Source: Alphaproteobacteria bacterium (GTDB lineage Bacteria > Pseudomonadota > Alphaproteobacteria > MPNO01 > UBA830). From it: a stretch of 64,000 bases of DNA. The position numbers were made by a program, and so were the translations under genes. The stretch spans positions 2,208,001 to 2,272,000 of the forward strand of contig OZ219790.1 of the NCBI GenBank assembly GCA_964291215.2, written 5' to 3'. The notes beneath the pieces are model-generated. The model had not been told where the DNA came from. It searched no databases and saw nothing but the letters and a program-made list of their open reading frames with translations. Shown piece after piece: positions 21,253 through 63,636 of this stretch; position 1 is the stretch's first letter, and each line of letters starts with the position of its first letter.

Positions 21253-22481
21253 GGTACTGTAACTTGATGTCTGGAAATTTGTCTGAGGTTTGCGCTTTGA
21301 GGCGTTTCACTGGGGGGCTAGCCCCCCCCAGTGAAACGCGGCGCCATCGTACTATCCCATGGAGTTGGAAAACCTTCATGGAGGAAGCGAATGGACCTGC
21401 GACACACTACGACGATCGGGACTGTTTTGGAACATCTGATCGCAAACGGAGCAACGGATCTGGGGCGGGTCTTTGGCCAGCTCTTCGAGCTTGCGATGCA
21501 AATCGAGCGCGAGCAGTACTTGAAAGCGGGCCACCGGACACCGGAGCGACAGGGCCAACGGCTACAAGCGGATCGACACCCCCACTGTTACCGTTCAGGT
21601 GCCAAACGGTCACGGGGACGACCCGTCCCCAGTCGCTTGAACGCGGCCAGCGATCTTCTCGCGCCGTAGCCGAGATGTACATCAAGGGTGTTTCCACGCG
21701 GCAAGATGTAATGCGCGAGTTCGGGAGCCTGTCCTCTTCTCAGGTCAGCCGGACCACCAAGTTGCTCGATGAAGAACTCGCCGCGCAACCGGCCCCTGAT
21801 GAACTACCTGATCCTGGATGCGCGCTACGAAAAAGCCCGCCATGACGGCGTTGTGCGCGATGTTGCAGTGCTCTCGGCCATCGGAATAGGGGCTGCAGGC
21901 ACGTTCTGGGGCTCTCTGTGGCGCTCTCCGAGGCCGAGGTCCATTGGAGAGCCTTCCTGGAAAGCTTGCTAGCCCTGCATGGTACGACCTTCATCGTCTC
22001 GGATGCCGGGCTGAAAGCAGCACGACGCGCGGTGCTGGGCGCGGCGACGTGGCAGCGCTGCCAGTTCCACCTGGCGCAAAACGCCGTGCACCGAACAATG
22101 ACATCAGGAAACGTATTGGAAAACAGCTCGGAGCCATGCGTCCTCACTCCAAACCGCCGAGGCTGAACTGGGCGCCCTCGTGGCCAGCGACAAGCATCCA
22201 GGCTTCCTGGCTGGAAAAGAATGCGGGGCTCGCTGTCTTCACCTTGCCCGATGCTCACCGCAAACGTATGCGAACCTCGAACGGTATCGAGCGACCGATC
22301 CAGCAAGAGCTCAAGCGGCGCACCTCCAAAGTCAGGGTCTTTCCGAACCTCGCCTCGTTGGAGCGCCTCTCAACCGCGGTCCTCATCGACGAAAAATGGG
22401 AAACCGAAACCAAGATCAAATGGGAACAGCTCGATGACTGAGAGTTTCACGAAAATTTCCAGACATCAGGTTGCGTAATCG
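21253..22481 (+). mobile_element. IS256-family element, frameshifted
   Basis: IRL GGTACTGTAACTTGATGTCTGGAAATTT, IRR AAATTTCCAGACATCAGGTTGCGTAATC; AEMYIKGVSTR, LDARYEK, WQRCQFH, RTSNGIER. Confidence 0.9.
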
Positions 22482-23384
22482 GTCGGGCCGGCGGTACCAC
22501 CACGACTACACCGAAGCCGACCATGTCGAACTCCTTGAACTGGGTCTGCCGTGTCAGGTAATGGTCTCGGGCCGCCCCTCGGCGTTGTACGACGACCTGC
22601 TGCGGGACTGGGCCGCATCGCCGAGCTGCTGGAACGCCCGGCGCTGCATGTCGACGAAACCGGCTTCCGGGTCGACGGCAGGACCCGATCGCTCCATGTC
22701 GTCACCGACGGGACGTGCAAGTTCCTGCATCGCAAGCGCGGCAGGCAGGCGATCGAGGAGATCGGCATCAGCTACACCGGCACGCTGGACTGCCGGGCCG
22801 CATAGCTGGTCTGCGATCAATGCACCCACCAGCTGTGCGGGTCCCACCTGCTCAGGGAACTGACCTTCATCGTCGGCGCCAGTGGCTACCGCCGGGCACG
22901 CGTGATGAAGAAACTGCTGCCTGCCACAGGGTTGACAAGAGTGCATCCAGGACTCTGAACGAGGCCGACCGCCGCAGCGTCATCAAGCGCTACCGGACCA
23001 TCCTGACCCGGGGGCGAAGGAACTGCCTGAAATCCCGCCCCGACAGAAAGGAAAACGCGGACGGATTGCGAACGCGCACAACCTCCAGGAGCGTCTCGCA
23101 AGACATGAAGAGTTCGTCCTGCGCTTCATGAGCGACCCGGACGTCAGCTTCACCAACAACACCGGCGAGCAGAAAATCCGGATGGCAAAGGTCAAGGTGT
23201 CCGGATGCTTCCGAACCCGGCTCCACGCCGAGGCCTGGTGCCGAAGCTCAAGCTATCTCACCTCCATGGCCGCACTCGGCTACAGCCCGCTCGTCGCCAT
23301 CCGGGTCGCACTCGCCGGAAACGCCGCCGACATGATCAAGATGCACAACGCCAAACCCGCCTCTGCGGAGGGGCGAGGAGATAC
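22482..23384 (+). mobile_element. Divergent IS66-family remnant: methylase middle segment fused to TnpC C-terminal half
   Basis: RY..DY.EADH.ELL...LPC.VMVSG.PS.LYD, then LHVDETGFRV, HQLCGSHLLREL, FTNNTGE; IRR variant GGGGCGAGGAGATAC. Confidence 0.8.
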
Positions 23385-23650
23385 CCCGACGCCAGGAAAG
23401 ATCCGGCGTGCCGGGCGCGGTGCCTGACCGCAATGAGCCGCGTCGGGATTCTCGTGACCTCCCGGAAACCGCGCTCCGAGCGGGTCCCGCTTCCGGACGG
23501 TACGACGCATGGTGTGCCGGCACAGCGCGAGAAGGAAACAGACCTTCGGATTGGTCTCGACATGGTGCGAATCGCGCGCAACGGCGCTCTCGATGTGGCC
23601 GTGACATTCAGCCAGAATCAGGATTTGGCGGAGGCCGCCCAGGAAGTTCA
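23385..23650 (+). pseudogene. NYN (PIN-like) domain fragment
   Basis: REKETDLRIGLDMVR..LDVAV.FSQNQDL resembles the NYN EKGxD..L.D..S.D.D pattern. Confidence 0.6.
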
Positions 23651-23744
23651 CACTAACCGAATCGATCTGCAGTGTCAGATCTCCACGAAAACCCGTTCGT
23701 TGCCTACCCCGACATCAAGCCGGAACCAGGGGGTGAGCAGTTAC
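23651..23744 (-). repeat. Isolated IS66 left end
   Basis: Reverse complement of about 6566-6660. Confidence 0.85.
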
Positions 23745-25097
23745 TCTCCATGAATGTTTACAACTCCATGGGATAGTACGATGGCGCCGCGTTTCACTGG
23801 GGGGGCTAGTAGTCTAACATTATTGGATTGATGAATATAGTGACTTCAGTTTCGTCCGGGCATCCTTCGTCGTGAAACGCCAGTCGACAGTGACATCGGC
23901 CGCATTGCGGCGCTCAACCCACGCCACGGTCTCCCGCAGCATGGTGTCGCGGTCGGAAATGCGTCGCCGAAGGCACTGCCGCGACAGCGCGCCGATCTCG
24001 ATTTCGGCCATGTTGAGCCAGCTTCCGTGCTTCGGCGTGTAGCGAAACTCGAACCGCTTTCGTACCCGCCTCTTCGGGCTCGAAGGCTTCATACAGTGAC
24101 TGTGCGTGTTCAGATTGTCCAGCACGATCTTCCTGTCGGGGAAATGGTCGTCGGCAAGCTCCCGGATGAAGTGCGCCCAGTCCCGCGGCGGTCGGTGACT
24201 TTCACCGTGCGCCAGTTCTCGTTGGGCGCAAAGGCCAGGAAGAGGTTGGCCGTGCCGTTGCGCTCATATTCATAGTCGACCACCTCCGGCTGACCGGGGG
24301 ATGCGGGTTTCCTGCTGCCGGCTGGTCTCCAGCACCTCGTCCCTGGCAAAGTCCCGCTGATAAATGTCAAGCACATCCGCCGCCACGAACTGTGCGCTCC
24401 GGTGCGGTGGAATGCACCAGTACTGCTTCAGCCACGGCTTGATCTCTTTTTTTTAGCGTCTTCCTGACCGTCTCTTCTGAAATGCGCTCGACAATCTCCA
24501 TCTCCACCAGACGGCCGGCAAGCAGCTTCAGCGTCCACAGCCCTCGGGCGGGGACGAACAGTGCGACCAGCTTCGCCTCCATCGCCCCCGTTTTGGCCGG
24601 CGGTTCACCTGCTCCTTGCGGCTGAGGGCGGCCCCTCCAGAACGCAGCGCTTGCGCAAACGCTCGACCGTCGCCGTGCCCAGCCCTTGCGCAATGTCGGC
24701 ATCGACAAGCCGAGCGCCCCCTCAACATCAGGATTTGTGCCCGGCGCCAGGCAGCCCCGGTGCCGTCGACAATTGCCTTCAGATCCTGGCGCTCCTGCGC
24801 TGAAAGGGTCACGCGGTAGAGCTTCCTGCCCCGAGAGTTGGCCATATGCGCCGCTTCTGTCATTGCGCCGAAGACCTGCGGGCATGCCCGTTGTCCGGAC
24901 CTGCGCATGGGGCTGCCTGCCTGTTCGGCATCTGCCCGTGTGGATATCGGTACTGTCCAGATTCCAACGAACGCCGACACGGAAATACTACCCACAAAAA
25001 AACCATCAATACAATGCCGGTGGACTACTAGCCCCCCCAGTGAAACGCCTCAAAGCGCAAACCTCAGACAAATTTCCAGACATCAAGTTACAGTACC
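23745..25097 (-). mobile_element. IS256 left end/leader only, split by IS630
   Basis: Reverse complement of 21253-21385 with IS630 inserted at the central CTAG. Confidence 0.85.
23806..25031 (-). mobile_element. IS630-family element, degenerate
   Basis: IRs TAGTAGTCTA / TGGACTACTA, TA duplication within CTAG, A-tract at the ORF A/B junction (ETVRKTLKK), YTPKHGSWLN. Confidence 0.9.
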
Positions 25098-26129: not shown

Positions 26130-29100
26130 ATGGTAGCCGCACTCGGCAGGCCGGGCCGGAGCGAGTATTATCTCGACAGTCAGCAAACGCTCCACGGCCC
26201 GCTTGACGGCGCCAGGGGGCGGCGCGAGGCCGCGGGGCGGTGGTGGAACCCGGCTGGCCTGTTCGGCCTCGCCGACCGAGATCCGGTCGAGGACGCCGCG
26301 TTCGCCAACCTCCATCGCGGCGTCTCCCCAGACGGGCGCACAGCGCTGGTGCGGAACGCTGGCGGACGCCGACGCAGCGGCATCGATCTTGTGTTCCCCG
26401 CCGACAAGTCGGTCTCCGCGCTGTGGGCGATTGCCGATCCGGAGACCGGCCGGCTGATCGAGGAAGCGCATGATGACGCCGTCCGTCTCGCGCTCATCGA
26501 GATCGTCGCGAAACACGCGATGTCGGGCGTGAGGATCCATATCGGCACCTGGGTGGAGTTCGTTCCCGCAGACGTCATGGGAGCCACGTTCCGGCACGGG
26601 TCGAGCCACGCCCACGACCCCCATCTTCACACCCATTGCGTGATCTTCAACCTTGCGCGGCTTCGCGACAGCAATCGTTGGTTCGCCACAACCAAAAACG
26701 CTCTCCATTGCTGGCTGAGGGCCGCGGGAGCGGCCTACCGGCACGCACTGGCCTGGAACCTCCGCGAGCGCATCGGCGTCCGCTGCGAACCCTACGGCCG
26801 CAACGACGCCCTCATGCGCATCGCGGGCATGCCTCGCGGGCTGATCCGCGAGTGGTCGAAGCGCAAGCAGATGATGGAAAACGCATTGGAGTTGGCCGGG
26901 GTGCAGGCGCGCAGCGCAACAGGCGCACAGACCACGATGATCGCCAAAGCCACACGCGACGGAGGAGACCGGCACCCGGACCTCAAGGAACTCCGCCCCG
27001 TATGGGCGCGTGAACGGAAGTCCTGGGTCTCCGACCCGGCCCGCCTCATGGCCTCGCTGTCGAAGCCCGACGAGCGGTTCCCGTCACCGAGCCGCTACGA
27101 GATCCTCCGTAAGCTGAAACGTGTACCCGACGATCTCGCGGCGCGGCACTCCCCATTCTCCCATCCCGACCTGGTCGAGAGCGTCTGCAGCGTCTCCGCC
27201 GGTTACATCGACTGGCGCGACGCAAGCGGGTGGATCGCGGAGGCAATCCGCCGCTCTGATGTCGTCCGAGTCGACAATCCTGAGCGGTCGCCCGCGGCCC
27301 GCGCCGACCAGATGCATTCGCGGCTTTATGCCCTCGAAAACACCGCCGAATCCGGGAACGCGCTCAGGGAGGCGGCGCGCAAGTTATCCCGGGACGCACG
27401 CTTCGCCGTACCGCAAGCCAGGGTCGAGGAGCGCATCCGGAGCCTCGACGCGGCCGGCTACCCGCTCTCGGCCGACGACATCGCGGCGATCCGCTACGTC
27501 ACATCGGGGCGCCGCATCGCAGTCATCGAGCTCGCGCCCGCGCTCGACCGCAGCCTCGCCCTGCGCCCGGCCGCCGACCTTCACCGCAACGAGGGCTACC
27601 GGGTGATCGGGGCGGCGGCCACGCTCCGCGCGGCGGCCGAGCTCCAGAATGAGACCGGCATCGCGTCGATGCAGATCAACCGGCTCCTGAAGATGAACGA
27701 CAAGCGCGCGCTCGACGACAACCGGGCCTGGGTATTCGTGATCGCCGATGCCGGCATCCTGCTTGAACGCCAGTTCCGAACGCTGTTTGCGCTCGCCGGA
27801 CGCTACTCGGCGAAGTTCATCCTGGTCGCGGAAGCGGGCCAGCGTCCGTCGCTTGTGGCGGCTCCCGGTCTCGGCCTCGTTACCGACGTCACCGGCTGCC
27901 TGCGTTCCTACTACCGACGGCTGCCCGGCGATGTTGTGTCCGAGGCCTTTTCCAATAATCGCGTTCGGCTCAGCAACGGGCTCAGGGAGACACTGGAGCG
28001 CACGGCCGGGGACTGGGACCAACATAGGAGGACCTTTCCCCGAGATTCGGTCGCGGTCGTCGCCCGCACCCGCAAGGAAGAGAAGGTTCTGACCCATATG
28101 CTTCGCACGCGCCTGCTCGGCCCCGCCGCCGAAGGTGCACACGCCTGCATTGAGGTCCACCAGCACACCAAACTCACAGCGTACGGAAAATCCGCGCCGA
28201 TGGAAATCCGGGCCGGCGACCGACTGAGAATCGGCGCCACCCTGTGGGAGGCGCGCCTGTTCCGGGGCTCCGTGGTCACCGTCGAGGACATCGTCCCCAT
28301 CGCGTCAGTCACCGAAGAGACGCGTTTCCTCATCCGCGTAGCGACGCGCGAAGGCCGGCAGGTCGAGTTTTACCACGACGATGTCCGCGACGGGCATGGC
28401 GGCGTCCGCCTCGCGCACGGATACGCCTGCACGGTCGACGAACTGGTCGGCAGGTTCGATCGCATTTTCGCGTTGGCCGACGACGGGTGGCGGCGACACC
28501 AGCTCGAACGCATCGCGGCCTGCTGCCGTGTCCGGCCCCGAATCCATGTCAACCGCGAACAGCTGGCGGCCGCGTTCGGGGCACCGGCCGATGACGATAC
28601 GCTTCTCAACCGCCTGCGCCAGAGCTGGTCACTTACTGCCAGGAGCGGACAACCCTGCAGGGACCAGAAACTCCATCCCGACCGTCACGCCCATGCGGAA
28701 GGATGGCTTATAGCCAATGACGGCGGCGACGGAACGCTGCGGCAACTCGGACAGGACATCGCCCAGGCAAATCTCGACCTCCGTCACGGCGACACGGTCG
28801 CCGCCTTCGCCGCCGGCAGGGCCGCAGTGCTCGAGGAATGGGCGGCATGCCGCGAGCGCATCTCCGTCGACGGAGATGCAGCGTTGCTCGCGCCGTCGGT
28901 CGCCAGAACACTGCGCCGGCACAGGGCGCTGATCGACTCTCTCGAGACCCTGCCGCGGCGGTGGACACCTCTGGTGCAGCGGATGTTCGCGGCACGCGGC
29001 GACCTGGCACCAAACGACATTCGGAAGTTCGCCGCGCTCTACCGACGGCTGCGCGATCAACGGAGGATCGCAGCGGCGCGTCAGCTCCGGAACGAGACCG

Positions 29101-29504
29101 CCGGCGCAGACACCGCTTCCGTCGATGCGTGGCTCGCCGAAGTCGCGCGCCAGCGGCGGTTCCGCACCTTCGTGCTCAATGCCGTGGAGCACAACGCCGG
29201 GCGCGCATGCGAGATCCCGTCATGGCGGAACAGCGTGGCAGACGCCGAGCGGTTGATCGCCCGCGGCCGCGCCATCCTCGCCGCAAGCAGTCTGCCGCAA
29301 ACAGGCGATGCGGGACGCAGCGCGGTGCAAGCCGCCGTGGCGGTGCTCGAAGCGGAGCAGAGAGAAGACCTGTCGGTCCCCGGCCGCAGGCTCGAGCCCG
29401 CCCCCGACGCGGCGCCGCGCCAAGGTCTCGCTGCAGCGTTGGCGCAGGCGCACCGGCAACCCGAGAATCATCGCCTGGCCCGTGAAAGCTCTATCGCCTT
29501 CTGA
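26130..29504 (+). CDS. MobF/TrwC-family relaxase with degenerate RecD-like helicase region
   Basis: N-terminal EYY, DLVFPADKSVS, HGSSHAHDPHLHTH, WSKR; later LAHGYACTV helicase-type motif. Confidence 0.85.
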   Translation: MVAALGRPGRSEYYLDSQQTLHGPLDGARGRREAAGRWWNPAGLFGLADRDPVEDAAFANLHRGVSPDGRTALVRNAGGRRRSGIDLVFPADKSVSALWAIADPETGRLIEEAHDDAVRLALIEIVAKHAMSGVRIHIGTWVEFVPADVMGATFRHGSSHAHDPHLHTHCVIFNLARLRDSNRWFATTKNALHCWLRAAGAAYRHALAWNLRERIGVRCEPYGRNDALMRIAGMPRGLIREWSKRKQMMENALELAGVQARSATGAQTTMIAKATRDGGDRHPDLKELRPVWARERKSWVSDPARLMASLSKPDERFPSPSRYEILRKLKRVPDDLAARHSPFSHPDLVESVCSVSAGYIDWRDASGWIAEAIRRSDVVRVDNPERSPAARADQMHSRLYALENTAESGNALREAARKLSRDARFAVPQARVEERIRSLDAAGYPLSADDIAAIRYVTSGRRIAVIELAPALDRSLALRPAADLHRNEGYRVIGAAATLRAAAELQNETGIASMQINRLLKMNDKRALDDNRAWVFVIADAGILLERQFRTLFALAGRYSAKFILVAEAGQRPSLVAAPGLGLVTDVTGCLRSYYRRLPGDVVSEAFSNNRVRLSNGLRETLERTAGDWDQHRRTFPRDSVAVVARTRKEEKVLTHMLRTRLLGPAAEGAHACIEVHQHTKLTAYGKSAPMEIRAGDRLRIGATLWEARLFRGSVVTVEDIVPIASVTEETRFLIRVATREGRQVEFYHDDVRDGHGGVRLAHGYACTVDELVGRFDRIFALADDGWRRHQLERIAACCRVRPRIHVNREQLAAAFGAPADDDTLLNRLRQSWSLTARSGQPCRDQKLHPDRHAHAEGWLIANDGGDGTLRQLGQDIAQANLDLRHGDTVAAFAAGRAAVLEEWAACRERISVDGDAALLAPSVARTLRRHRALIDSLETLPRRWTPLVQRMFAARGDLAPNDIRKFAALYRRLRDQRRIAAARQLRNETAGADTASVDAWLAEVARQRRFRTFVLNAVEHNAGRACEIPSWRNSVADAERLIARGRAILAASSLPQTGDAGRSAVQAAVAVLEAEQREDLSVPGRRLEPAPDAAPRQGLAAALAQAHRQPENHRLARESSIAF

Positions 29505-39379: not shown

Positions 39380-39950
39380 CCACAAGCTTCATGTCGCCTC
39401 GCTCGCAGAGCAAACCCCACACCGCTTGTGGACAACCACAGAAAACATCACCACAGACACCCGCAAAAACCTTGCCAAGAAACATGGATGCTCGGTCGAG
39501 CGCGCCTCGCCGCAACAGCTGCTCGCATGGAATCGCGGACACTGGGTAGTCGAGAGCCACCATCATGTCCGCGATGCCACCTTCCGCGAAGACGACTCCA
39601 TGCTCCGAACGCACCCGCAAACAACGCAATCACCCTCGCCGTCATCATCCGCAACAAACGCAAGCTGCGCAAACCCTTCAACAGCTTCCCACCATGGCAA
39701 CAAGCGCAAGCAGGTCCTGCACGCAATCACAAGACCAGGCTGATCGAGCCTCTCTCCCCGACAGAAACTGCAAGCTTTCGAGCCCGGCAACCAAGGCCTC
39801 TCGCTCGCCCCGGATACGCCGACCAATCGCACCCCGATCGACGCCGTAACAGCGCGTCAGCAAATCTCAAAATCGCAGCCTCGAACGCGTCGACCCGCGC
39901 CACGATCAGGACTCCGATCACATCACATCAACAAGCATGGGATCACCTTG
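39380..39950 (+). mobile_element. ISAs1-family 3' part and right end
   Basis: RGHWVVESHHHVRDATFRED; terminal about 45 bp match 8492-8537 inverted. Confidence 0.75.
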
Positions 39951-41001
39951 GCAAACGGAGCAACGGATCTGGGGCGGATCTTTGGTCAGCTCTTCGAGCT
40001 TGCGATGCAAATCGAGCGCGAGCAGCACTTGAATGCGGGCCGCTACGAACGGACACCGGAACGACAGGGCTATGCCAACGGCTACAAGCGGATCGACACC
40101 CCCACTGTTACCGTTCAGGTACCAAAGACGGCCGGTCACGGGGACGACCCGTCCCCAGTCGCTTGAACGCAGCCAGCGATCTTCTCGCGCCGTAGCCGAG
40201 ATGTACATCAAGGGTGTTTCCACACGGCAGGATGTAATGCGCGAGTTCGGGAGCCTGTCCTCTTCTCAGGTCAGCCGGGCCACCAGGTTGCTCGATGAAG
40301 AACTCGCCGCGCAACCGGCCCCTGATGAAATACCTGGATGCGCGCTACGAAAAAGCCCGCCATGACGGCGTTGTGCGCGATGTCGCAGTGCTCTCGGCCA
40401 TCGGAATAGGGGCTGCAGGCACGTTCTGGGGCTCTCTGTGGCGCTCTCCGAGGCCGAGGTCCATTGGAGAGCCTTCCTGGAAAGCTTGCTAGCCCTGCAT
40501 GGTACGACCTTCATCGTCTCGGATGCCGGGCTGAAAGCAGCACGACGCGCGGTGCTGGGCGCGGCGATGTGGCAGCGCTGCCAGTTCCACCTGGCGCAAA
40601 ACGCCGTGCACCGAACAACGACATCAGGAAACGTATTGGAAAACAGCTCGGAGCCATGCGTCCTCACTCCAAACCGCCGAGGCTGAACTGGCCGCCCTCG
40701 TGGCCAGCTATCGCGACAAGCATCCAAGCTTCCTGGCTGGAAAACAATGCGGGGCTCGCTGTCTTCACCTTGCCCGATGCTCACCACAAGCGCATGCGAA
40801 CCTCGAATGGCATCGAGCGACCGATCCAGCAAGAGCTCAAGCGGCGCACCTCCAAAGTCAGGGTCTTTCCGAACCTCGCCTCATTGGAGCGCCTCTCAAC
40901 CGCGGTCCTCATCGACGAAAAATGGGAAACCGAAACCAAGATCAAATGGGAACAGCTCGATCAGCTTCACGACAATTTCCAGACATCGGGTTGCGTAATC
41001 C
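39951..41001 (+). mobile_element. IS256-family copy, 5'-truncated
   Basis: Near-identical to 21442-22481. Confidence 0.9.
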
Positions 41002-56731: not shown

Positions 56732-57100
56732 TTAACGAGGTATTTCGAAAGCCGTAATTATCGGATTGTGATCGGTGATGTGGCGTGTGATGTCGTCAAG
56801 GGTCAGTTCAGGCATGAGAGACTCCAAACTGACAATCTCGGTGCCGCCTTGGATCAATTGGTCCTCAAGCGTACCAAACCCTCCGACATGGCTCATAACG
56901 ATTGGTCCCCACCTCTTGCTGACAAGTGTTGAAGATCCCTCCGGCAAATCAGCTGTTCCAAATCTAACACCCCGGCTGAGCAACAAGTCCATCTCCGGCG
57001 CATCGAGACCGACCTGAGTGCGCCCTACCAGTAATATCGGCTGGTCCTCGCCACGGCGGGATATCCAGTCGCTTATGGCTTGAAGTTCTGCCGTGCGCCG
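56732..57100 (-). pseudogene. C-terminal gene remnant, possibly EEP (endo/exonuclease/phosphatase) family
   Basis: R..ELQAISDW...PILLVG...TDHNPI; 5' end cut by IS256. Confidence 0.4.
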
Positions 57101-57109
57101 TCATCACAC

Positions 57110-60100
57110 GGTACTGTAACTTGATGTCTGGAAATTTGTCTGAGGTTTGCGCTTTGAGGCGTTTCACTGGGGGGGCTAGCCCTGCCGTGTCATGACAAAT
57201 CTGGTTGACAATGGTTTACGTGTTCACGCGTGTCTTTGTCTATCCCGGAACCCGATTTCCCGGCCGATTTGGTGACCCAGTGCGGCGCTGGTGTGTCTGG
57301 CCACATGATCTGGTGACCCGGGCGTGCTTTCGGTCGCGGTAGCCGCCGAGATGGGCGACCAGGTGCACCGCATCGGCGAGACGCTCCGGTTCCTTCAGGG
57401 CGTACTTGTGTGCGTAGTCGCGCGAGTTCGCTGTCGGTGAACATCAGCTGCGGCTCGCACCTGGCGGCCGAGCAGGGTCATGACCATGATGCGCCATGCG
57501 ATGACGGCGTTGATCGCCCGCTGCAGGCGGTGCGGAACAGCAGGTGTTCCACCCTGCATCCGGATTTGAGCACGTAATCCTCGATTCGCCAGCGCTGAAG
57601 GTAGAAGCCGACGATGTCGGCCGCCTCCTTCGCCAACCCGCACGGTGGTCAGCAGGCACCGGGATCCTCACCCTCGGGCGCTCCCTGACCCCGTGCAGGG
57701 ACACCGGCTTCGCGCTGGGGGCGGTGCCCGTCACGGGCAGCGTGACGGACCGCAACTCGCCAGGCGCTTCTGTCGCGCGGGCCTTCTTCCGGCTGGCTTG
57801 CTCCGTCAGTCCCTCGATCTCAATCAGGCCTGCACCGCCGGCCATGACGGCGAACAGCCTTCCCTCCTTCAGCACCCTGTCATGCTTGGCGCGCAGATCG
57901 ACGCGGGGCAAGCGCGTGTCGAACAGCTCGAAGATGTCGGCTTCCCGACGGAGATGACGCGCGTCTTGCCGCCGGGGTGGCAGCGGCGATATCCTTGAAC
58001 CCCTCGAGCCAGCGCTGCGGCGTGTCTCCTGCGACCGGGGCTTCACCGGACCCAGCACCCCGAGTGGCAGGTCAGTCACCGCCAGGGTCGCGTGCAGGCT
58101 TGAGGCCCCGGTCTGGTTCTCACCTGCAGGCCGTCGCAGCCGGGAGAAGTTCAGGTCCGTGCCGCAAGAACCGTCTTCTGGCCACGGATGCGCCGGATGC
58201 TGCGCTCACGGTGCGGCGCAAGAATGTTCGCCGGCGTGATCTCCGAGGGCGACCATCCGGTAAAACGCATTGATCGCGGTGTTGTCGGCGCTGGGAGACG
58301 CATTGATCTTCTGACCGGCCGCCAGAAGGCTGGCGCTCCAGGCGCGCAGAAAGTCGCTTGTCACCCCCCTCCAAACTCGTTCTGCGCCCAGTCGTTCAGA
58401 CCTTCGCCCGGCGAGGGCGCATGATCGACCTCCCCAGCTTCCTGCGCGCTCCAGTTCGGCCACGAAGACCGTCTTCACCGTCTCCCAGTGCTCCCGATCC
58501 TGCCGGCCTTCGGTCCTGCACAGGAAGTTGGCCGCGCGCAGGCAGGGTAACCTTCATCGGCAAAACTGAGCCATGGTCGAAACGGTCCTCGAAGTCACGC
58601 GGCGCAGGATGCGCACATGGCTGGCTAGATGCGGGCAGAGCACCTGATCAAGAAACGGCTCAGACAGACGATCCGCTGCAGGTGGTTCCGGCGCTGCCCG
58701 TCGTTCCATCCAGCGGTCCCGCGCCGCGCGGCGGCGGCAAACCCCGCTGCGCCACCCGTGCGCCGAGCCCACGAGATATTGGCAGCCGGCGAAGGTCGTC
58801 GCGGGTGTTCACGCGCAATCAGCGTGACCGCTCGGTCAATACGATCCCCGACCACGATGATCCCGAATGCGCGCGCCGGAACCTCTGCAGCGATACCAAC
58901 AGGCGAGGCCGGCGGTCGATTGTCGGTGACTTCGGCACCGGCAGGACGATCTCCGGGCGCCCTCAGCGCCTTCATGCAGCCGGCAAGCTGCAGACGGCCG
59001 CGCGCGTCGACAAAGGCAAACTCCTCGCAGACGACCCAGAGCCGACCGGCTGTCGAACTGCTCACAGGACAGCAGCGACGCGATCCGCGCAACTGCTGCC
59101 TCGTCCCGCAATGTGCGGCTGATCTGAGACTGTGACATGGGACACTTATGCCACGCCGAAACACCGTTGTTCAGCTAAAATTTCCGTGACATGCGAGGGC
59201 TAGCCCCCCCAGTGAAACGCGGCGCCATCGTGCTATCCCATGGAGCTGTAAACATTCATGGAGGAAGCGAATGGACCTGCGACACACTACGACGATCGGG
59301 ACTGTTTTGGAACATCTGATCGCAAACGGAGCAACGGATCTGGGGCGGGTCTTTGGCCAGCTCTTCGAGCTTGCGATGCAAATCGAGCGCGAGCAGCACT
59401 TGAAAGCGGGCCACTGGACACCGGAGCGACAGGGCTATGCCAACGGCTACAAGCGGATCGACACCCCCACTGTTGCCGTTCAGGTGCCAAACGGTCACGG
59501 GGACGACCCCCCCCCCCCCAGTCGCTTGAACGCGGCCAGCGATCTTCTCGCGCCGTAGCCGAGATGTACATCAAGGGTGTTTCCACACGGCAGGATGTAA
59601 TGCGCGAGTTCGGGAGCCTGTCCTCTTCTCAGGGGCCACCAGGTTGCTCGATGAAGAACTCGCCGCGCAACCGGCCCCTGATGAAATACCTGGATGCGCG
59701 CTACGAAAAAGCCCGCCATGACAGCGTTGTGCGCGATGTTGCAGTGCTCTCGGCCATCGGAATAGGGGCTGCAGGCACGTTCTGGGGCTTTCTGTGGCGC
59801 TCTCCGAGGCCGAGGTCCATTGGAGAGCCTTCCTGGAAAGCTTGCTAGCCCTGCATGGTACGACCTTCATCGTCTCGGATGCCGGGTTGAAAGCGGCACG
59901 ACGCGCGGTGCTGGGCGCGGCGACATGGCAGCGCTGCCAGTTCCACCTGGCGCAAAACGCCGTGCACCGAACAACGACATCAGGAAACGTATCGGAAAAC
60001 AGCTCGGAGCCACGCCTCCTCACTTCAAACCGCCGAGGCTGAACTGGGCGCCCTCGTGGCCAGCTATCGCAACAAGCATCCTGGCTTCCTGGCTGGAAAA

Positions 60101-60369
60101 CAATGCGGGGCTCGCTGTCTTCACCTTGCCCGATGCTCACCGCAAGCGCATGCGAACCTCGAACGGCATCAAGCGACCGATCCAGCAAGAGCTCAAGCGG
60201 CGCACCTCCAAAGCCAGGGTCTTTCCGAACCTCGCCTCGTTGGAGCGCCTCTCAACCGCGGTCCTCGTCGAGGTCGACGAAAAATGGGAAACCGAAACCA
60301 AGATCAAATGGGAACAGCTCGATGACTGAGAGCTTCACGACAATTTCCAGACATCAGGTTGCGTAATCC
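57110..60369 (+). mobile_element. IS256-family copy with an IS4-family element inserted in its leader
   Basis: Same IRL/IRR and frameshifted transposase as 21253-22481. Confidence 0.9.
57181..59200 (-). mobile_element. IS4 (IS50/Tn5-like) element, degenerate
   Basis: Imperfect IRs CCCTGCCGTGTCATG / GTGACATGCGAGGG, CTAG duplicated; GDKRLSARL, READIFELF, RWRIEDY..LKSGC, RPGHQIMW. Confidence 0.82.
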
Positions 60370-60807: not shown

Positions 60808-63636
60808 TCACCTTGAGGCTGATCCGCGCACCCGATGCCTGGAGCGTCGTTTCGGTTGCCGGCGCATGACAGTATCCAGAGGCACGCGCATGCTCTCATA
60901 CAGCATGAACAGGTGCTCGACCCGTTCGCGCTCGGAGGAGAACCGCCTCTGCCGGTATAGCCGGTCCACCGCTCGGTCGAGGCGCGTGTGGGCGCGGCGG
61001 AGGGTTGGGGGCATGAGGTCAGGGTCGTAGAGGTCGGCCAGCGTCGCGCCCGGATGGCCGGCACGGGCGTCGAGGACGGCCTGAGCCAGCGGCTCCAGAT
61101 TCGACAACAGGTCCGCCTCGCCGGAAGCGAAGCCGGGCGGGGTCGGGAAGGTGTTGTAGACGAGACCGATGGAATAACGGTAATCGCTCTTGAGCCGCCC
61201 ACCGACATGGCGCAACCATGCCATGTGCATCGCCGAGGTGAGCAGTGCGAAGTCGGTCAGGGTCGCGTTTTCCAGAACGCGGACGAGGTTGCTGGGAATC
61301 GTTGGAGGCTCCAGCCAGCCGATGGGCGCGTATTCTCGCCGCTCCGAACTGACCTCGGGGATCACCAGGAACGGCGAGGTGGGGATGACGTTGACATGGT
61401 AGAGCGTCGGTGTCGTCGCGAGTTTGCGTGTCGGCGCGCTCTTGCTGGCCTCGCGGTAGGAGCGAACGGCAGCGATCCGCTTACGGACGCGCGGCAACTG
61501 CGCCAGCACCCCGGGCGATGTGTCTTGCAAGGCCAGAATCCACCGCTCGCCGCCTTGCAGATACTCGCGAGCGCCGACATAGGGGCGCAAATATGGCGCG
61601 GCGTCCGGTTCCGCTTCCAATAGTTCGGCGCGTTCCGCCGCGTCGAAGATGTAGTTGCCGCCGTCAATGGGCTTGGAGCCGATGATCAGTCGTCCCATCC
61701 CGTTGATCGGCGCGCTTTCCTCCCGCACCACCAGATGCGGGTCCGACAGCCCGCCCGCATCGAACAGATAGGGTGACAGCGCCCCGTGGCGGCTTTCCTC
61801 CGGGTCGCCGTTGATGTCGGGATAGCTGAACAGCCGCTTCTCCGGCCGCGCGGCCGCGCGCCGGTCGAGGCCGAGGATGACGACATGCACATGCGCCTTG
61901 CCGCGCGCATCCGATCCCCATGCGAAGGTCCGGTGCGCGAAGGCGATCTCCAGCTTGCAGCGCCCGAACAGCACCGGCCATAGCTGCGCGACCTGCTCGC
62001 CCTGCGTGATCGAGTTGGTCGCGACAAAGCCGACCCGGGCATCGCCGCCCTTCACATACTCTCCTGCCTTGATGAACCATGCGGCGACGTAATCGAGCGT
62101 GCCGCCGCTCTTGCCGAGGGCCGCGATCCCGCGCACCTGCGCGCGCTGGTCCGGCGTCTGGTATTTCGCGCCGACGAACGGCGGATTGCCCAGCACGAAC
62201 GAACACTCGCCCGGCGGCAGCAATTCGGACCAGTCGGTTTCCAGCGCGTCGCCGTGGACGATATGCGGCGACTTCTCGAGCGGGATCCGCGCGTAGCTCC
62301 GGCCGAACTCCAGACTCAGCCGGTTGTTCATGATGTGGTCCATCATCCACAACGCGGTCTCCGCGATCCGGGTCGGGAACTCGCCCAGCTCGATCCCGTG
62401 GAACTGATCCACATCCACCACCGACTGCCATGCGGTGTCGAGCACTGCCTGTCCGGTCGCGGCGGTCACCTCCCGAATGTCGCGGATGACCTCGATTTCC
62501 AGCAGCCGCAATTCCCGGTAGGCGATGATGAGGAAGTTGCCGCAGCCGCACGCCGGGTCGAAAAACGTCAGGCGGCCGAGCTTCGCCTGGAACTGGCGCA
62601 GCGCCGCGAGGCGGCCCCGGCGCGCTTTCACCCGCCCGAACTCCGCGCGCAGGTCGTCCATGAACAGCGGCTCCATCACCTTGAGGATGTTCTTCTCGGT
62701 CGTGTAGTGCGCCCCTTGGGCGCGGCGCTCCGCCGGGTCCATCACCGACTGGAACAGCGCACCGAAGATCGCGGGAGAGATGTTCGACCAGTCGAAGCGG
62801 CAGGCGTCCAGCAACGCCCCGCGCATCGCCGTGTCGAACGAGAAGGTCCGCAGATGCCCCTCGAACAGGTCGCCGTTGACATAGGGGAACCGCGCCAGGT
62901 CCTCGTCGAGCGTCGCCGCGCGCTCGTCCTCCGGGGTGTCGAGCACCTCGAACAGTTGCGCGAGCCATGGCCCGAGATCGGCCCCGTCCTCGCCGGTGCG
63001 CGTTTCGATGAAGTCGAGGAAGATGTCGCGCGGCTCGAACACCCCGGTGTCGTCGGCGAACATGCAAAACACGACCCGCACAAGGAAGCGTTCGAGATCG
63101 TGGCCCCCGTGTCCGGCATCGGCGAGCGCGTCGTGCAGCCGCCCGACCAGCTCGGCGGCTTCGATGTTCGCCGGGTCCTGGTCCCGGAACGTCCGGCGCT
63201 GCACGCCTAGGATGAAGCCGAACGACTCGACATGCGCGGGCAGGTCCGCCAGCGGGAAGACAACGGTCCCCCGCTCGTCGAGATCATGAAGCTCGAAGGT
63301 CCGGAAGTCGCTCACCAGGATGAAGCGCGGGCGCTCGCGGTCCGGCAGCGCTTCGAAATACTCCCCGGCCTGTTCGTACGCTCTCCGGAGATCGCGCCCG
63401 GCGCTCTTCTGCTCGACGAGCAGCACGCCCGGCCAGAACAGGTCGATGAAGCCCGAACGGTCGTCGAGCTTCGCGACATGCGCCTCGTAGCGGGCGACGT
63501 TGCGGCGCCGCACACCGAACACATCGAAGAAGGCGTTGTAGAAGCTCTGCGTCTCGCCCTTCTCATAGGCCGCATCGCGCCACTCTTCGGCGAAGGCCGC
63601 CGCCCGTGCCCGCACCTCGTTCCACGACAGACGCAC
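60808..63636 (-). CDS. MmeI-family type IIL restriction-modification enzyme (REase-m6A MTase-TRD fusion)
   Basis: GFIDLFWPG.LLVEQKS, GAHYT, DPACGCGNFL, GNPPF, TLADLYDP; 942 aa. Confidence 0.92.
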   Translation of the reverse strand: MRLSWNEVRARAAAFAEEWRDAAYEKGETQSFYNAFFDVFGVRRRNVARYEAHVAKLDDRSGFIDLFWPGVLLVEQKSAGRDLRRAYEQAGEYFEALPDRERPRFILVSDFRTFELHDLDERGTVVFPLADLPAHVESFGFILGVQRRTFRDQDPANIEAAELVGRLHDALADAGHGGHDLERFLVRVVFCMFADDTGVFEPRDIFLDFIETRTGEDGADLGPWLAQLFEVLDTPEDERAATLDEDLARFPYVNGDLFEGHLRTFSFDTAMRGALLDACRFDWSNISPAIFGALFQSVMDPAERRAQGAHYTTEKNILKVMEPLFMDDLRAEFGRVKARRGRLAALRQFQAKLGRLTFFDPACGCGNFLIIAYRELRLLEIEVIRDIREVTAATGQAVLDTAWQSVVDVDQFHGIELGEFPTRIAETALWMMDHIMNNRLSLEFGRSYARIPLEKSPHIVHGDALETDWSELLPPGECSFVLGNPPFVGAKYQTPDQRAQVRGIAALGKSGGTLDYVAAWFIKAGEYVKGGDARVGFVATNSITQGEQVAQLWPVLFGRCKLEIAFAHRTFAWGSDARGKAHVHVVILGLDRRAAARPEKRLFSYPDINGDPEESRHGALSPYLFDAGGLSDPHLVVREESAPINGMGRLIIGSKPIDGGNYIFDAAERAELLEAEPDAAPYLRPYVGAREYLQGGERWILALQDTSPGVLAQLPRVRKRIAAVRSYREASKSAPTRKLATTPTLYHVNVIPTSPFLVIPEVSSERREYAPIGWLEPPTIPSNLVRVLENATLTDFALLTSAMHMAWLRHVGGRLKSDYRYSIGLVYNTFPTPPGFASGEADLLSNLEPLAQAVLDARAGHPGATLADLYDPDLMPPTLRRAHTRLDRAVDRLYRQRRFSSERERVEHLFMLYESMRVPLDTVMRRQPKRRSRHRVRGSASR

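Follow-up and report, generated by a model that had tools for sequence, protein, structure and literature searches.

The insertion of one insertion sequence (IS) into another is known, and in one study nesting matched chance, with site preference within an IS named as an open question (PMC12065110). In the window, by which we mean the whole stretch of 64,000 nucleotides of an alphaproteobacterial genome that was analysed, three copies of one IS256-family element retain their leader. Two of these three leaders have been entered at the same CTAG, at the centre of a palindrome, by elements of unrelated families. This raises the question of whether the leader is a genuine insertion hotspot, and if so whether it is maintained for that purpose, multiplied together with its contents or hit by accident. 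The features concerned are the following.

21253..22480, plus strand: IS256-family element with an empty leader and a transposase disrupted by deletions of 5-7 bp
21302..21339, no strand: loop-less leader palindrome; position and pairing kept across the IS256 clade
21316..21323, no strand: GGCTAGCC core, putative 8-bp target of IS50-like elements, containing the CTAG used by IS630 (21318-21321)
21357..21381, plus strand: hairpin 2 (CCATG...CATGG); five pairs retained in 27 of 27 rows, one of them as U-G in 4
21969..21972, no strand: internal CTAG of the same IS256 (TGCTAGCC), a seldom occupied within-element control
23746..25097, minus strand: second IS256 leader, left end at 25097; CTAG split by IS630-A
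23809..25028, minus strand: IS630-A; TA duplicated at 23807-8 and 25029-30; transposase broken
57110..60368, plus strand: third IS256 copy; palindrome split by IS50-1; no flanking direct repeat
57182..59197, minus strand: IS50-1, an IS4-family, IS50/Tn5-like element with a DruA-like N-terminal region; transposase broken

The first IS256 copy starts at 21253, 35 bp beyond the stop codon of gyrB, and has no flanking direct repeat. Its palindrome begins 49 bp inward from the left end and has arms of G6 and C8. Folded as DNA, the leader gives z = -4.1, and 0 of 200 shuffles were equally stable. Hairpin 2 overlaps the start of a Shine-Dalgarno-like GGAGG (21380-84), followed by the likely start codon (21391-93), and is predicted to mask the ribosome site of the transposase gene. 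An earlier, sequence-only reading had described a CTAG-centred palindrome at 21302-21339, about 50 bp inside the IS256 end, and an IS630 in the minus-strand leader with TA duplicated; both descriptions hold, as does its count of two occupied leaders in three. It had also placed an IS4/Tn5-like element in the leader at 57110. The family was right, but the limits (57181-59200) and the CTAG duplication are most likely to be replaced by 57182-59197 and an 8-bp duplication of GGCTAGCC. The second IS256 copy is cut off by an IS66-like end ~128 bp in, and a fourth fragment (~39940-41000) is without a leader.

Elements of the IS256 family carry terminal inverted repeats, make an 8-9-bp target duplication and transpose through a circle. 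In a less damaged copy (L016) the transposase matches PF00872 (E 1.5e-51) and NF033543 (187 bits, cut-off 150), by which the host element is classed as IS256 family with a Mutator-type DDE transposase. Related ends occur in every complete copy, and exact 8-bp flanking repeats at some; a repeat of 6 bp or longer is kept by 24 of 72. Across the whole window no structured RNA family except one tRNA reached the Rfam gathering threshold. Between 21150 and 21500 neither strand has an intrinsic terminator (GC stem-loop and U run; 0 sites), and no promoter or terminator consensus was found in the IS256 leader. Nor is the palindrome a REP element, as it has a fixed position in the IS256 leader, whereas REPs are free-standing and often clustered extragenic repeats.

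The window also contains long open frames for a TrwC-type relaxase (1124 aa, 26130-29504) and an MmeI-like restriction-modification gene (942 aa, 60808-63636). IS256 copies have further recurrent break points at positions ~122-129 and 1240-1270 (e.g. window 23746), and one, just upstream of the start codon, is used by the IS66-like element.

Occupancy of the leader CTAG across the genome

The genome (6.15 Mb, two contigs) consists of repeats over ~1.64 Mb, about 27% of its length, and of all tetramers CTAG falls furthest below the count predicted from its trimers (2569 against 5521). It has ~110 IS256 left ends, and 101 left arms still touch CTAG. A foreign element lies at the CTAG of 36 of these arms (36%): 18 are IS50-like, 15 IS630-A, 2 IS630-B and 1 IS5-like, so that four families are represented, in both orientations. 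Left arms were chosen for the rates because the right-arm cluster (104, against 93 in a separate count) is inflated by chaining.

Other CTAG sites are much emptier. The internal CTAG of the same IS256 is occupied at 1/78 and 4/83, a CTAG near the IS66-like end at 12/111 and 14/111, and an internal CTAG of IS630-B at 2/47 and 1/46; among unique CTAG arms 117/2853 are occupied. The comparison with background CTAG sites suggested by the sequence-only reading therefore comes out in favour of the leader (Fisher p = 1.6e-22 against unique arms, p = 1e-9 against the 1/78 at the internal CTAG), with p-values that are overstated because copies are treated as independent. One small multicopy CTAG site is occupied at 9/19, and its five IS630-A copies are clonal. 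The hotspot is also selective. IS630-B shows no enrichment at the leader (2/101), and three other classes of ends that abut CTAG (35, 16 and 12 ends, 63 in total) are absent from it. Together, the controls and the absent classes confirm that the leader CTAG is a real, multi-family but family-selective hotspot, with occupancy far above that of other CTAG sites.

Repeats mis-joined at a common CTAG could give such a picture in a genome about 27% repeated, where the G-run lengths of the left arms vary from 5 to 17. However, contigs assembled from the short reads of three runs extend across the leader/IS50-1 junctions, albeit with overlaps of 21-23 bases, below the 31-base bridging rule. In one run, X3, junction depth is ~524 against 48 for the unique flank (~11x), and the assembly has 10 such junctions. 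Leader/IS630-A junctions appear as loose ends in X4 and X5. The three runs belong to one study, X3 is possibly the source sample, and X4 and X5 have no cover of the unique flank 56900-57020. With both junction types present in short-read contigs, as the sequence-only reading needed, we consider an assembly artefact barely credible.

The occupied leaders might instead descend from a few founder insertions that were amplified as IS256 composites, through transposition in trans or when copies recombined. Fourteen of the 15 IS50-1 copies lie in the leader, two IS50-1 copies have left arms on either side, and only 24 of 72 complete IS256 copies retain a flanking repeat of at least 6 bp. Left-arm G runs have lengthened from 6 to between 9 and 17 in 11 of the 63 empty leaders (e.g. 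G000:C1:483800 and C2:2025965), yet are long at 6 of 6 junctions between the IS50-1 B end and a left arm (p = 1e-4), which may reflect one founder. Two further loci, alike in a rare variant of the leader and almost identical at the IS630-A end, look like one duplicated composite. On the other hand, nine distinct element/orientation classes are found on left arms. In four groups of IS630-A ends at the leader, diversity matched that of random ends (P = 0.14-0.53), whereas a control group was flagged as clonal by the same test (P = 0.006). The IS256 haplotypes adjoining IS50-1 are as diverse as those of empty leaders (P = 0.37, 0.80), a test weakened by mosaic copies. Amplification would also have multiplied insertions at the internal CTAG, yet this is nearly empty. 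Hitch-hiking, likewise raised by the sequence-only reading, is thus a distinctly unlikely explanation for the hotspot as a whole; it survives as composite copying, which is minor but present.

A three-level nest is found at G000:C2:3518064-3522497, where IS50-3 lies in the GGCTAGCC duplication of IS50-2, itself in an IS256 leader.

Target preferences of the invading elements

The IS50-like elements encode transposases of ~780 aa with DruA-like, Tn5 DNA-binding, DDE and Tn5 dimerisation domains. Full-length relatives match PF14706 and PF02281 (Tn5-type DNA-binding and dimerisation) as well as PF14236. The last of these, the Druantia-associated DruA domain, is fused to the IS4-family transposase in most of them (P0001-P0120). 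The IS50 subgroup of the IS4 family has a DDE transposase with a Y(2)R(3)E(6)K motif, and the ends of the IS10 and IS50 subgroups begin 5'-CT (PMC2266710). Its target duplication spans roughly one turn of the helix, in contrast to the 4 bp of IS701. The motif is present at residue 630 of relative P0001 (NF033590 291 bits, cut-off 160), and broken pieces of the window element cover residues 39-771 of this protein at 34-39%. An intact copy in the genome, L169, scores 280 bits with NF033590; this is a 793-aa DruA-fused frame (G000:C2:1643690-1645975) amid broken relatives. All 56 listed IS50-like ends start with CT, which the end search itself required, while matched 8-bp repeats set the boundary independently. 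The window invader is accordingly placed in the IS50 subgroup of the IS4 family, by motif, ends, domains and the duplications of its sister subfamilies.

The ends of IS50-1 in the window start with CT and GGCTAGCC stands on both flanks (57174-81 and 59198-205). Since the target is itself palindromic here, duplication length was read from other sites. Five non-leader sites of sister subfamilies in this genome have matched 8-bp duplications (AGCTAGCC, TGCTAGCC twice, GACTAGGT and CCCTAGCC), as do 3 of 3 two-ended copies in genome G002, in which a DNA search found none of this IS256. Three IS50-like ends from a metagenome scan (4 loci) have similar 8-mers alongside. Duplications of 4 bp and 10 bp were considered and rejected, the non-palindromic sites deciding for 8 bp. 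IS50-1 is therefore read as 57182-59197 and most likely duplicates the 8-bp GGCTAGCC, as its sister subfamilies would suggest. In the sole non-leader copy of IS50-1 the two flanking 8-mers differ, and a 4-bp duplication would suit it equally well; recombination between copies is a likely cause, given how few complete IS256 copies keep their flanking repeat. The target profile comes from few sites, with IS50-like ends unlocated at most G041 and G044 loci and at several in G002.

GGCTAGCC occurs 115 times in the genome, about 100 of these being derived from the leader; only 12 empty copies lie outside it, and none of these has the same 10-mer context. The leader core is thus the symmetric form of the IS50-like target motif and the source of most such sites. 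This invites a neutral account based on consensus and copy number only, in which the leader is simply the commonest GGCTAGCC or CTAG site and the palindromic arms are irrelevant. IS50-like occupancy agrees with it, at 18/101 in the leader against 1/13 for perfect 8-mers elsewhere (p = 0.69, a comparison of low power). With a weak profile built from 14 non-leader IS50-like arms, however, the internal CTAG of IS256 scores at the 88th and 97th percentiles and the leader at the 91st. As the internal site scores as high as the leader, consensus alone fails to predict the gap in occupancy.

The other main invader belongs with IS630, whose target is TA in 5'-CTAG-3' (PMC2577343 Table 1). Its transposase matches PF13358 (E 3e-9), with a partial match to NF033545 that, coming from a fragment, falls under the cut-off. 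Nearly all of the 66 and 69 IS630 ends abut CTAG. With a DDE_3 transposase and TA duplicated in CTAG, IS630-A is assigned from these features to the IS630 family. The bases that neighbour CTAG in the leader are disfavoured by IS630-A: a C adjoins CTAG in 14% of 80 targets against 35% of the background, and the leader context stands at the 24th percentile. Even so, IS630-A occupies 15/101 leaders; two other multicopy sites that also score low have 0/78 and 1/47. The neutral account does not anticipate this difference. In its favour, the IS630-A rate at the leader is only about twice that at the IS66-like end, a site that scores well (7/111, p = 0.046; 8/111, p = 0.08). Overall we think it unlikely that consensus and copy number suffice.

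Local sequence leaves the IS630-A excess unexplained, and the palindrome may therefore help. A factor beyond the short consensus probably aids IS630-A, most simply the G/C palindrome itself or open leader DNA. Among reconstructed non-leader targets (36 IS630-A and 30 IS630-B), 0 of 66 have a palindrome that extends more than 1 bp past CTAG, so that away from the leader neither IS630 family makes use of palindromes.

The leader palindrome in relatives and the origin of the hotspot

A DNA search of 40 relatives gave no real copy of this IS256, and for this reason controls were taken from a protein-based scan of GTDB genomes. Among the best 80 of 187 confirmed stretches (68-87% protein identity), most leaders have a loop-less palindrome of 30-36 bp at a fixed spacing from the left end. 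A comparison of centre-anchored 32-mers covered 34 leaders, 25 of them distinct; rows sharing a leader and ~7 rows without a detectable left end stand outside it. The arms differ among the 25 versions, with compensatory changes. At pairs 4-15, 291 of 300 cells are Watson-Crick, and none of the other 9 is G-T. Such strict Watson-Crick covariation would point to a constraint, or to a repair process, that works on both strands of the DNA.

In IS10 and IS50, a hairpin over the ribosome site guards against read-through expression. The IS256 leader resembles them in that a conserved hairpin covers part of the transposase gene's Shine-Dalgarno-like sequence, and differs in the additional upstream palindrome of 30-36 bp, loop-less and strictly covarying, for which no counterpart was found in print. 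By analogy, the palindrome, together with hairpin 2, may damp transposase expression from read-through transcripts, a role to which we give about even credence; the insulating function suggested by the sequence-only reading is in that sense plausible.

The centre is not conserved in the same way as the arms. Among the 25 distinct versions it is CATG in 11, CGCG in 5 and CTAG in 1, that of the present genome, and the nearest relatives, L023 and L024, combine CATG with arms that hardly differ from those here. The proposal that IS256 or its host maintains a CTAG palindrome to absorb other elements, the safe harbour or decoy of the sequence-only reading, is largely refuted by this. The 36 insertions in the leader and the share of IS50-like ends found there (34/54) would suit a decoy, and REP palindromes are known IS targets (PMC1525189). 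Yet the palindrome is clade-wide while its CTAG is not, IS630-B is unenriched at the leader and the 63 other CTAG-abutting ends are absent from it. Most IS630-A and IS630-B ends lie elsewhere (22/130 and 2/86 are beside leader arms), and nothing indicates a benefit to IS256. We regard an evolved decoy as very improbable.

Palindromes of two relatives with other centres are unoccupied at the centre, with 0/14 in G041 (CATG) and 0/27 in G042 (TATA). These genomes are rich in IS630-type genes, with at least 150 and at least 94 DDE_3 matches, respectively. They are imperfect controls because the IS630 families sampled there make their TA duplications in AT-rich surroundings, with no specificity for CTAG, and because their IS50-like elements are distant from those of G000. 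The empty centres therefore indicate no more than that the hairpin does not by itself act as a general sink.

Given a CTAG centre in only 1/25 versions and unoccupied CATG and TATA relatives, an accidental hotspot is the most likely explanation. We favour, with reasonable though far from full confidence, the reading that a CTAG centre by accident made ~100 IS256 leader copies preferred targets of two unrelated transposase types. The step from a CATG to a CTAG centre would predate the spread of IS256, given that L023 and L024 combine near-identical arms with CATG. DruA-fused IS50-like transposases would prefer a symmetric 8-mer near GGCTAGCC, most sites of which the leader provides. IS630-A would require CTAG, its use of the site likely being raised further by the long G/C palindrome as bendable or extrudable DNA. 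Some composites would subsequently have been copied through recombination or IS256 movement. As an insertion would harm expression control, the site would be a weak point of IS256 rather than a service that it offers.

In a bolder version, the leader of a widespread IS256 clade would contain a palindromic control element, so far undescribed and acting at the level of DNA. Its structure would raise target capture by transposases of unrelated types whenever the centre suits them, and a change of two bases would let other elements inactivate an expanding IS family en masse. This version is possible, but we hold it only tentatively and think it rather doubtful.

An accidental hotspot of this kind has several partial precedents. 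The targets of Tn10 (GNNGCTNAGCNNC) and Tn5/IS50 (AGNTYWRANCT) are both palindromic (PMC2577343 Table 1), and the symmetric GCTAGC core used by the IS50-like elements here is much like that of Tn10. Their duplication, however, is 8 bp rather than the 9 bp of Tn10 and Tn5, and their transposase of ~780 aa has a DruA-like N-terminal region. IS630-A, as is usual for IS630, duplicates TA in CTAG; what differs from the targeting of IS630, Tn10 or Tn5 is that two unrelated families converge on one site within a third IS.

REP palindromes are targeted by ISPsy8, ISRm22, IS1397 and IS621 (PMC1525189). They share with the leader the character of a multicopy non-coding palindrome, insertions at or near the symmetry axis and the involvement of more than one IS family. 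In contrast to REPs, the palindrome here is a fixed part of the IS256 leader, and its invaders also use many non-palindromic sites.

IS231A inserts into the ends of Tn4430. This is likewise a mobile element found repeatedly at a fixed site of another, and the invader is of the IS4 family with a G/C-flanked symmetric target (GGG-N5-CCC; PMC2577343 Table 1). The IS256 site differs in being an internal leader palindrome, in attracting several families and in having target bases peculiar to one lineage.

In the open-access literature searched, no published account of the leader palindrome, the hotspot or the deletion pattern described below was found. Nor did it yield a description of the 8-bp motif targeted by the DruA-fused IS50-like transposases. 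The conserved leader palindrome and the 8-bp motif are thus features not found described. Palindromic targets, REP targeting and IS-in-IS insertion are all already known, and we see here an accidental, lineage-specific hotspot, not a new kind of system. Its value is as a natural experiment on how transposons choose their targets: the palindrome comes with CATG, TATA or CTAG centres, exists in ~100 replicates and has a control site within the same element. It shows how, as an IS expands, a minor alteration to one element can steer other families and give rise to nested composites.

Recurrent small deletions in multicopy elements

The multicopy IS of the window (21253-25097 and 57110-60368) and of the genome at large carry dense, recurrent deletions of 5-7 bp, mostly 6 bp, whose positions recur while their end points vary. 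This pattern may matter more than the hotspot. IS256 has 1-21 deletions per copy (50 copies) and IS50-1 has 10-24 (12 copies); pairwise, the 12 largest repeat families have 3.9-9.9 per kb. No such deletions were found in six families of repeats whose open frames are long, in dnaN-recF-gyrB compared with G001 (3.9 kb), or in three IS pairs of G002.

Microhomology at the deletions is 1.7 against 0.83 at random, AT starts are enriched 2-fold, and the same 5-7-bp indels are visible in short-read contigs. No match to Piwi or Ku was obtained in G000-G004, and MutS is present in all five of these genomes. The deletions are possibly the product of a transposon-directed decay process. That L169 is intact amid its broken relatives hints that the load of deletions may depend on copy number.
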